Assembly: GCF_036365525.1 (NCBI RefSeq)
Contig: NC_090418.1
Span: 10,602,856 to 10,666,855 of the forward strand
Length of the DNA: 64,000 bases
Source of the DNA: Heterodontus francisci
Taxonomy: Eukaryota
Reading direction: 5' to 3'
The position numbers were made by a program, and so were the translations under genes. Under the pieces are notes generated by a model. The model worked only from the letters and a program-made list of their open reading frames with translations. It ran no database searches and was not told the origin of the DNA. Positions 9,608 to 12,245 of the stretch are shown here, in pieces. How positions within the stretch are numbered: the stretch's first letter is position 1; each line of letters starts with the position of its first letter.

Positions 9608-12245
9608 CTAGTTCAATGGTGTTTGGTTATGTTTCCTGTACAGGAACAAGGCTATCAATGAAGCAGAGATCAGACAGACAGCTGTCACAGTCAGGGCTAC
9701 AATCAGGACCACCTCAAACTCCACACCTACAAAGCAATGAGAAACCAATGGTTAGTGAAGGAAACACTGAGGGGAAAATGGAAACTAGCAGTCAGCCAAC
9801 TCACCACCTGGAGACCTTTTCAGCCTTCGCTCAACCTCATTCAGGGATGCAGTTGCCAAGTCAGTCACCTCAGTATCCAGAATGACCAGGGGTCCAAGTG
9901 AGGCCTCACCCTCCCACTTCAATCCAGCTTCACTCTCTGCAATATCAAACATGCCAGTTAGAGGGGTAAAGGGAGACCTCCCACATCTAGAGGATCAATG
10001 TCCTACCAGCTTCAGGTACAAGATCCCTCCATCCTCTGGAAGGAAATCGGAACTCCCTTGTGGCACCACAGTTACCCACATGGCAACAGGCACAAATGTC
10101 ATTGTTGGATTCCTCCAATGGGGTCCAGCTAAACAAGAGAAACAGTTGATCAACCAGGTTGTCAATCACACTTCCAAACAACATCCCTGAGAGGAGAGGG
10201 AACTTACACATTCTGCATCTTGTGGAAAGTACAAGCTTTGTTCATAGAATCTCTCCGATCCACTGGAGCAACTTTCAGGTGACATGTAATGAAAATCTGT
10301 GGGATAAATTTCAACACAAGTTATTTAGTGACTCCTCCCAATATAGAGAGCCCAATGATCAGCTTCCACTTACCAAGGAACGGTCACCTGCAAAGAAGCG
10401 GAAAGCATCCAGGTCAAACTGGAGCTTGTCCAGCTCACGCTCGTCTCTTGGCAACACGAAGGTTGAAAAGGAGTCCTCAGCTTTGCTGTCCAGGAGGCAA
10501 CTGGAGAAAGATTCAAAAAGGGACATGAAGTGAATCAAGTGAAGCCATTGAGATGGGAGCAGCTGGAGAAAGCAGAGAGCTCCTTACCCATTGTAGTCAA
10601 TGATGCTGTATCTCGGGGTGGAATCCTTGTCTGGGCTCAATGTAGCTACACAGCGGTCAATGTAGAGCTTCAGGGGCATGTGGTTGGTCATTGAAACAGA
10701 GGCCTCAATGTGAATGAGGTCACCCAGGTAGTAGACAGTCGAGGTGCGCTCTGTAAGCCAGTCATCTGAAGTACAAGAGGACAAGGGTTGAAGACAGTGG
10801 GTACAACTCCCAGTGGGTGAGTACAGGAAATCACTCCCCATCCACCCATCACATACCATTCATTAGGCGCAGAGAGAATGACAGATGCCCTTCTCCAGAC
10901 TTGGTGGAGCTGAATGGGATCCAGGTGGGCTTGATGGGGTTACTGCTCACATTCCCCTTCCTGGAAGGATAGGAGAGTTATTTTAGGACAACTTCAGAGA
11001 ACTTGCATTGGACTGAAAATTCATTAATAAAAATCACTCATCTATTACCTAAAATAATGACACTCGATGGGAACGACAGCTCCATTTGTTCTCACAATGA
11101 CAGATCCATGATACTGGGGGGTGTGGTTCAGGTGGGTGGTGTAGACCAGGAAATCTCCAGCCATCTGAAAGACATCAGGTAAAGGAATTGATGAACTGAT
11201 CTCAATGGAAGATATTTATCTATATTGGTCAGCAACAGGAATTGCTGAATATTGGTATTGAACTAGCTACTCAAGCACTCCCTGTAACTGTTCGATCCCC
11301 CTTTATTGGAGGACACTTCCAGCCTGCAAACCAAAAACCCTAAATCCCACAGAAAGAGCTCCCATGTAAACATCCAAGTGAGCTGCCAGTTACCCTGCTC
11401 TGGAACACCAAACCATTATTCATGGACTCACTGAAGTAATTCTCAGCTGTAATTGCTCAAATAGAAACACCAAAAACAGAGCTGCCTTGAATATATTAAA
11501 ACCCAACTGCACTGGTTTAGCCTTCAAAAATGGAAGCCACACAAGATGGAATTTCTTGACTGTGAATGGAGGAAGCAGGTGTCAATGAGAGACAGGAAAG
11601 GAAGGACTAGCTTGAAGAAAACAGAATAATAAGGTTTGAGAGCAGGTGATACAAGTTAAAGGCAACAACATCTGAGTGTTAAGCTTCTTTCCGATACTTA
11701 CCAAAAACAAAATAAATAGTTAGGGTGAATGTTAACAGAGAGACAGTACACAGAGACAGGAACAAGTCTTCATGAATGTTCAGGAAATCAGTGTTGAAAA
11801 TGTACACATGAAGTTTAGAACAAGAGTCAATGACTCACATTACCTGTAATCTGCTGCCACACTCATGGAGCCCATAGTCAAAGAGGACAGTGTGGTTCTG
11901 AGAGTAGATCCTGGTCGGCCGACAACCTGCTGTCCCCAGGGTCAGGTCAGCAGCTTTAATCAGATGCCTGGTTCCAAATAAATCCATCTGGACCCTGACC
12001 AGCAGGTTCTGCTCTCCACACTGCACCATCACAGTCTGCAGTGGAGACACACTTCGACCCTCAGACACACGGAAATGGGAACCAAAGGGAGGCCCAGTTG
12101 GAGGGACTCTCTGAGGCACAGGGGTGGCTTTTACTCTTCTCCATGGAAACCTCTGGTCTCGAAACTGTTGCCAAGTATCAGAACAACAGACAACTCCAAC
12201 TAACACCAGCACTGGGAACAAACCCCTCATTACAAAATCCCCCAT
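9608..12245 (-). CDS. ZP3: ZP3-type zona pellucida/egg-envelope glycoprotein, copy 1 (462 aa, 9 exons)
   Basis: Exons (-): 12245-11844, 11164-11049, 10960-10857, 10765-10588, 10500-10374, 10296-10208, 10128-10007, 9936-9805, 9726-9608. All introns GT-AG, phases consistent, 1389 nt total. Signal peptide [25 protein letters not shown] (VQCGE, DLFGT, LHECG, IECHY); linker NVSS..PTWIPF; ZP-C ([37 protein letters not shown]); [38 protein letters not shown]. The start could alternatively be the ATG at 12230. Confidence 0.93.

Follow-up and report, generated by a model that had tools for sequence, protein, structure and literature searches.

A tandem array of ZP3-like genes

Four ZP3-like genes lie in tandem on the minus strand of the window (the 64,000-nucleotide stretch of Heterodontus francisci DNA analysed here). 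All have nine exons separated by GT-AG introns, and copies 2–4 encode proteins of 463 residues (Table 1). A DNA search of the animal's own genome identified at least 30 near-identical ZP3-like matches between 10.61 and 11.52 Mb of contig C48, and a protein search with exon 4 found those 30 copies again; both counts are lower bounds. Rebuilding the 30 genes gave 26 open frames, three copies with a stop in exon 7 and one frameshifted copy. The four-copy setting of the sequence-only reading is replaced by this larger array, and its statement that copy 1 stands alongside three conventional subunits was wrong, since 25 further intact copies exist. Coding identity averages 97.1% across the array; copy 1 is its lowest-coordinate member and, among intact copies, the farthest from its nearest neighbour (97.2%).

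Several other members of the family depart from the common pattern. A common CGA>TGA stop at codon 366, in exon 7 and four codons 5' of the furin site, is found in L032, L033 and L043 (C48, 10.73, 10.77 and 10.91 Mb), whose products would be a complete ZP module lacking both the external hydrophobic patch (EHP) and the anchor; L043 falls in a different clade from the other two, so the stop recurred or was converted. In L042 (C48, 10.89 Mb), an intact copy, the P4 Arg of the furin site in exon 7 is lost (K-G-R-R) and no downstream site is present, and copy 4 of the window carries in exon 5 (59218-59092) a private R301C within the F-R-F motif, which introduces an additional cysteine. Six copies at 11.46–11.52 Mb of C48 (L051–L056) have a different promoter and an exon 1 shorter by 18 nt, and share exons 2–9 with the array. 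More distant ZP3-like genes are L057 and L058 (C48, 4.42 and 3.38 Mb) and L064 (C23), with exon 4 identities of 66%, 62% and 43%, respectively. Intronless, partly broken ZP3 copies also occur on C24, C6, C1, C3 and C43 (L059, L060, L061, L062 and L063, in that order), consistent with retrocopies of a germline-expressed gene.

Table 1. Coordinates in the window of the ZP3-like genes and of the features of copy 1.
Feature	Position	Strand	Remarks
ZP3-like copy 1	9608..12245	(-)	9 exons, intact, 462 aa; end copy of the 30-copy array
Exons of copy 1	12245-11844, 11164-11049, 10960-10857, 10765-10588, 10500-10374, 10296-10208, 10128-10007, 9936-9805, 9726-9608	(-)	
TATA box and E-box	12291..12317	(-)	Spacing to ATG as in 24/30 copies
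Private G304A and D305G	10386..10391	(-)	Directly after F-R-F motif; residues 96% and 99% conserved in aligned homologues
Degraded canonical furin site R-G-W-R	10026..10037	(-)	R372W, AGG>TGG at 10031; private to copy 1
EHP, SLGPLVIL	9878..9901	(-)	Unchanged in copy 1
New R-L-K-R motif	9815..9826	(-)	EHP-to-anchor linker; 3-nt deletion and GAG>AAA; private to copy 1
Private S428F	9716..9718	(-)	Adjoins membrane anchor
Putative transmembrane helix	9638..9712	(-)	Hydrophobic stretch, from sequence; begins 7 residues past R-L-K-R
AATAAA	9597..9602	(-)	Directly past copy 1 stop; sequence farther on unlike every other copy
ZP3-like copy 2	27351..29982	(-)	Intact, conventional sites
ZP3-like copy 3	45406..48037	(-)	Intact, conventional sites
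ZP3-like copy 4	58328..61227	(-)	Intact, conventional sites

Copy 1 carries two private changes around the EHP

Copy 1 bears no mark of a pseudogene: there is no stop, frameshift, broken splice site or broken promoter, all introns are GT-AG, and the reading frame is open over 462 residues. The translation has the layout signal peptide, EHP, membrane anchor and short tail, with the hydrophobic N-terminus and the anchor assigned by eye, and exon 9 encodes the anchor and tail intact. The protein is covered by the Pfam families PF23344 and PF00100, and its nearest matches outside sharks are turtle ZP3-like proteins. The public protein model P0033, which contains both changes described below and differs from copy 1 at its ends, has the copy 1 sequence over the module and matches chicken ZP3 (PDB 3NK3) with an E-value of 6e-103. 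As in the chicken protein, ZP-N and ZP-C with the ZP3 cysteine cluster are followed in copy 1 by the EHP, the anchor and a short tail, in that order. Judged from its sequence, copy 1 is a ZP3 by module and layout that lacks one feature, the strict furin consensus R-X-K/R-R before the EHP, although its R-G-W-R fits the loose consensus R-X-X-R as defined in PMC8391237. It differs from vertebrate ZP3 in having a full furin consensus after the EHP and none before it.

Both changes had been noticed in the sequence-only reading and were confirmed in the rebuilt genes. At 10031-10029 on the minus strand, copy 1 has TGG where copies 2–4 have AGG, turning R-G-R-R into R-G-W-R. Its exon 8 measures 132 nt, as opposed to 135 nt in copies 2–4, and past the EHP it reads R-L-K-R (9826-9815) where the other three read E(R/Q)RLQERS. 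The difference in exon length reflects an internal 3-nt deletion accompanied by two substitutions; a shifted splice site was ruled out as its cause, the splice sites being the same as in the other copies. At the DNA level, the site before the EHP is R-G-R-R in 28 of the 30 copies, K-G-R-R in one and R-G-W-R in copy 1, and the exon 8 deletion is likewise found in copy 1 only, so that R-G-W-R and R-L-K-R are both private to it (1/30).

The two changes are derived

Homologues inside and outside this genome were used to polarize the two changes. LQERSP is preserved in three retrocopies (C24, C6 and C1), one of which, on C24, also has R-G-R-R. Arg at position 372 is retained in 110 of 113 aligned proteins from other species (at least 65% identity). 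The sequence-only reading had proposed to look for the pair of changes in other species. The full upstream site is present in 80 of 87 other chondrichthyan proteins with the cysteine cluster and the EHP and missing from seven, some of them faulty models; none of the 87 has a full site after the EHP. A profile search added 143 new proteins, 65 of which were parseable and 37 anchored; in these 37 diverse ZP3-like proteins, a full site precedes the EHP in 16, is missing in 21 (many of which read R-K-G-R) and follows the EHP in none. Because Arg372 is so widely kept, the retrocopies retain LQERSP and a full site after the EHP was found in 0/87 and 0/37 proteins, both changes in copy 1 are derived, and as a pair they appear to be unique within the proteins sampled. 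The opposite polarity, with copy 1 as the ancestral state, was ruled out by the same retrocopies and by the other sharks, which keep both conventional sequences. The zero count of downstream sites in 124 proteins is not a significant depletion, as about one would be expected by our estimate.

Partial resemblances exist. P0110, a model without an anchor from another shark, also reads R-G-W-R and has no downstream site. In the skate protein P0031, the EHP is preceded by G-G-R-R and followed by R-A-M-R-K, which faintly resembles the copy 1 pattern; as a case of convergence this is a weak lead, the downstream motif of P0031 being minimal only and two further skate proteins (P0174 and P0183) having a full site ahead of the EHP.

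Predicted shift of furin cleavage

The likely consequence of the two changes was assessed against published data for human furin acting on peptides (Table S1 of PMC3545927), where a peptide counts as cut at a Z above 3.5 at 7.5 min. Of 18 R-X-W-R peptides found in that table, two are cut, both with extra basic residues, and none of nine R-X-W-R sites is cut in both of its peptides; the nearest to R-G-W-R, RPSRPWRD and RPWRDLPE, are uncut (Z of -0.1 and -1.2). R-X-R-R/DL peptides are cut in six of six cases; the peptide RGRRDFPE, with DF in place of DL, is slow (Z of 1.7, later 3.6) (PMC3545927). On the downstream side, all six R-X-K-R/SP peptides found there are cut, including RLKRSPDK and RSKRSPGG (Z of 9.8 each), which ruled out Pro at P2' as a block to cleavage of R-L-K-R; QERRLKRI is weak (Z of 1.7), and Gly is poorly tolerated at P3' and P4' (PMC3545927). 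The position of R-L-K-R only seven residues from the anchor is a point against an efficient cut.

At the peptide level, a shift of the furin cut from R-G-W-R to R-L-K-R is therefore likely. This part of the sequence-only reading is backed by the peptides (0/9 for R-X-W-R, 6/6 for R-X-K-R/SP), whereas the function that it attached to the shift has gained no positive evidence. Its further remark that a minimal R-X-X-R persists before the EHP holds for the motif, but none of the nine R-X-W-R sites found in the peptide table is cut in both peptides (PMC3545927).

Predicted product of copy 1

The fate of a protein cut in this way can be anticipated from better-studied ZP proteins. Cleavage before the EHP frees the patch and allows polymerisation (PMC7155028), and the ZP3 precursor is a homodimer held through the FXF motif (bioRxiv 2023.06.21.544075). 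In the mouse, polymerisation of furin-site mutants can be rescued through alternative sites, the membrane anchor and tail are dispensable for secretion and required for incorporation (PMC7155028), and ZP precursors that are not cleaved build up in the ER (PMC8391237). When uromodulin is cut beyond its EHP, the product is soluble and fails to polymerise (PMC4755741). A structure model of P0033 is of low confidence (mean pLDDT of 49.8) and of use only for the EHP, which it renders as a beta strand (pLDDT of about 70–76); the R-G-W-R region is unstructured in it. The likeliest product of copy 1 would be a shed, poorly incorporated ZP3 that retains its EHP, unless a different protease acts on the Arg residues left ahead of the patch.

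Drift and selection

Copies at the ends of arrays may diverge more than those inside. A literature search on end-of-array divergence found nothing, and the idea is backed here by a tree of the 3' half of the genes, a rough guide only, given gene conversion. The median tip length in that tree is 0.0086, and the three longest tips belong to block-end copies, namely the frameshifted L049 (0.038), copy 1 (0.037) and L050 (0.036); the tip of L056, the fourth block end, is short.

Substitution counts do not set copy 1 apart. Its private substitutions comprise eight non-synonymous and four synonymous changes (dN/dS of 0.62), and the 25 other intact copies together have 59 and 28 (dN/dS of 0.65; Fisher p=1.0), a comparison that these small counts leave low-powered. 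At sites conserved in at least 90% of sequences, copy 1 has four of its six scored private amino-acid changes, compared with 18 of 51 in the other intact copies and a background of 56%, which fits weak constraint without proving it. Private changes occupy 15 columns in exons 5–9 and one in introns 5–8. Exon 9 holds five of these changes, most of which sit where homology ends on the 3' side. The array as a whole tolerates damage, with four of 30 frames broken, one K-G-R-R copy and one copy with R301C in the F-R-F motif.

No full downstream site arises from one substitution (0/4167) or from one 3-nt deletion alone, which means that two or more steps are required to create it. In simulations, the downstream site was gained in 0.4% of cases under copy 1's load in the linker and in 1.1% with a single deletion-insertion, and the first furin site was lost in 5.1%. 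The joint chance is about 0.05 x 0.004-0.011 = 2-5 x 10^-4 for copy 1 and about 1% or less over 26 intact copies, values that apply to a pattern picked after looking, from a scan of very many windows.

The favoured explanation and its alternatives

We favour, with moderate confidence, an explanation in which copy 1 is an end copy that drifted and that, if expressed, yields a latent shed product that has little effect and no separate function to maintain it. As the end member of a 30-copy array, copy 1 likely escaped homogenisation in its 3' half and then drifted. If the gene is expressed, furin would skip R-G-W-R and cut R-L-K-R, as predicted from the human furin peptides, releasing a soluble ZP3 with its EHP that, by analogy with mouse ZP proteins and uromodulin, would remain mostly outside the egg coat. 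With 25 other intact copies, this product would probably have little effect. Drift is supported by the lack of a dN/dS difference, by the long tips at block ends and by the occurrence of R-G-W-R without a downstream site in P0110. Against drift stand the low joint chance, the intact frame, splice sites, promoter motifs and poly(A) signal, the concentration of private changes in exons over introns, and the short tip of L056.

An unlikely but substantial alternative is that copy 1 remains an ordinary subunit, cut between ZP-C and the EHP by a trypsin-like or other protease or by residual furin activity, with the downstream site being harmless. Arg residues do remain between the ZP-C domain and the EHP, the R-G-W-R stretch is unstructured in the low-confidence model, and 21 of 37 diverse anchored ZP3-like proteins have no full R-X-K/R-R ahead of the EHP, R-K-G-R being frequent among them. 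The rescue of mouse furin-site mutants through alternative sites (PMC7155028) points the same way, as does the cutting by furin of RLLR/DL, a minimal site that shares its P1'-P2' residues with the R-G-W-R site (PMC3281273). However, the retention of R372 in nearly all aligned homologues (110/113) and the uncut peptides RPSRPWRD and RPWRDLPE (PMC3545927) argue against this alternative, cleavage of R-L-K-R in the trans-Golgi would strip copy 1 of the anchor that mouse ZP3 requires for incorporation (PMC7155028), and the private G304A and D305G adjoin the polymerisation motif.

It is also conceivable, though we find it rather improbable, that the second change compensated for the first without creating a new role: R372W would have left an uncleavable, retained precursor, and the downstream site would have been selected to clear it. 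Such a burden is in keeping with the build-up of uncleaved mouse ZP precursors in the ER (PMC8391237), and compensation would agree with the low joint chance of loss and gain. Yet inactivating the gene by a stop or frameshift would be a much easier way to relieve the burden, four of the 30 copies already have broken frames, and P0110 carries R-G-W-R without a downstream site, with the reservation that its model lacks the anchor.

The sequence-only reading had put forward a soluble regulator, chain terminator or later-activated precursor. On this view, copy 1 would be under selection as a soluble ZP3 locked by its EHP, which would cap or pace filaments, perhaps by forming mixed dimers with normal precursors, or would await an outside protease. 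We regard this as distinctly improbable, and equally so the specific version in which a regulator making up about 1/26 of the ZP3 dose pairs with normal precursors to cap or pace egg-coat filaments, or is activated by an outside protease. Its attraction lies in the cleavage switch favoured by the peptide data (PMC3545927), in the low joint chance of loss and gain, and in a gene that, with its frame, splice sites and promoter motifs, looks expressible. Furthermore, the ZP3 precursor homodimerises via FXF (bioRxiv 2023.06.21.544075) and two private changes of copy 1 adjoin that motif, a soluble form that retains its EHP is known in uromodulin (PMC4755741), and monomers of expanded ZP genes in notothenioids gained a new activity (PMC5059455). 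Against it, the pattern is confined to a single copy in a single genome, with a counterpart in 0/87 and 0/37 proteins, dN/dS carries no signal, and the divergence is accounted for by the position at the end of the array.

Lastly, it is highly improbable that the two variants stem from errors in the consensus or from a mosaic of collapsed copies: neither occurs in any short-read contig, and those over exons 7–8 show majority alleles, but such contigs drop rare variants by design, the unique flank and exon 9 end of copy 1 are matched with 0 differences at single-copy depth, and both changes are in frame and accompanied by other private substitutions that keep the frame. The contigs derive from three runs of one sample, possibly the assembly's own, two of the runs being of equal size. 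They match positions 8900-9659, which take in the final part of exon 9 and the unique 3' flank, at a depth of 3.5–4.7, and depth over the shared array exons is 105–120, which corresponds to roughly 25–30 copies. The two variants do not show in them because the array is collapsed over exons 7–8, where they carry majority alleles alone. Among runs recorded as RNA, none was found to contain the stretch; one spliced contig over exons 6–8 likewise has majority alleles and says nothing on whether copy 1 is silent. A run from a related species gave three contigs in all, none on the copy 1 flank.

Comparison with known systems

The cleavage states predicted for copy 1 are already known from uromodulin and from engineered ZP mutants. 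The closest likeness is to the long isoform of uromodulin, in which a cut beyond the EHP gives a soluble form that keeps the patch and does not polymerise, as predicted for copy 1 (PMC4755741). The two differ in that the uromodulin case is experimentally shown and comes from one gene through alternative proteolysis, with hepsin or without it (PMC4755741), whereas that of copy 1 is predicted, of furin type and encoded by a paralogue. In the mostly open-access literature searched, we found no report of a ZP3 paralogue whose furin site has moved past the EHP.

The liver-made choriogenins of teleosts are soluble ZP3-type precursors that retain the EHP and are unanchored on reaching the coat. They are secreted from the liver without an anchor, as the anchor-less proteins of our profile search also suggest, whereas copy 1 keeps its anchor, its tail and the promoter motifs of its neighbours; the likeness is a loose one.

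Tandem zp3 arrays, lineage-specific and with some pseudogenes, are known in fishes, including catfish (PMC13704971; PMC6262864), and gain of function in expanded ZP genes has been described in notothenioids (PMC5059455). The shark array differs from the fish zp3 arrays in its 30 copies with a mean coding identity of 97%, and the passages on fish arrays in PMC13704971 and PMC6262864 describe no paralogue with a moved furin site.

At present, copy 1 stands as one divergent copy in one genome. If it did act as a regulator, ZP filament assembly would have a natural brake encoded in a gene, and an anchored ZP precursor would have become a soluble one with its anchor retained. Even as a product of drift, it offers a natural two-site mutant for how the position of cleavage controls the release and assembly of ZP3.

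In other sharks, clusters of 15–38 near-identical ZP3-like proteins were found (P0005, P0008, P0046 and P0080), which suggests that arrays of this kind are general in sharks. Compared with the spliced contig, public models of the array proteins, P0033 among others, often show incorrect terminal exons or a displaced acceptor of exon 8. One protein filed under Salmonella (P0003) is 87% identical to exon 1 of copy 1 and looks like a mislabelled shark sequence.
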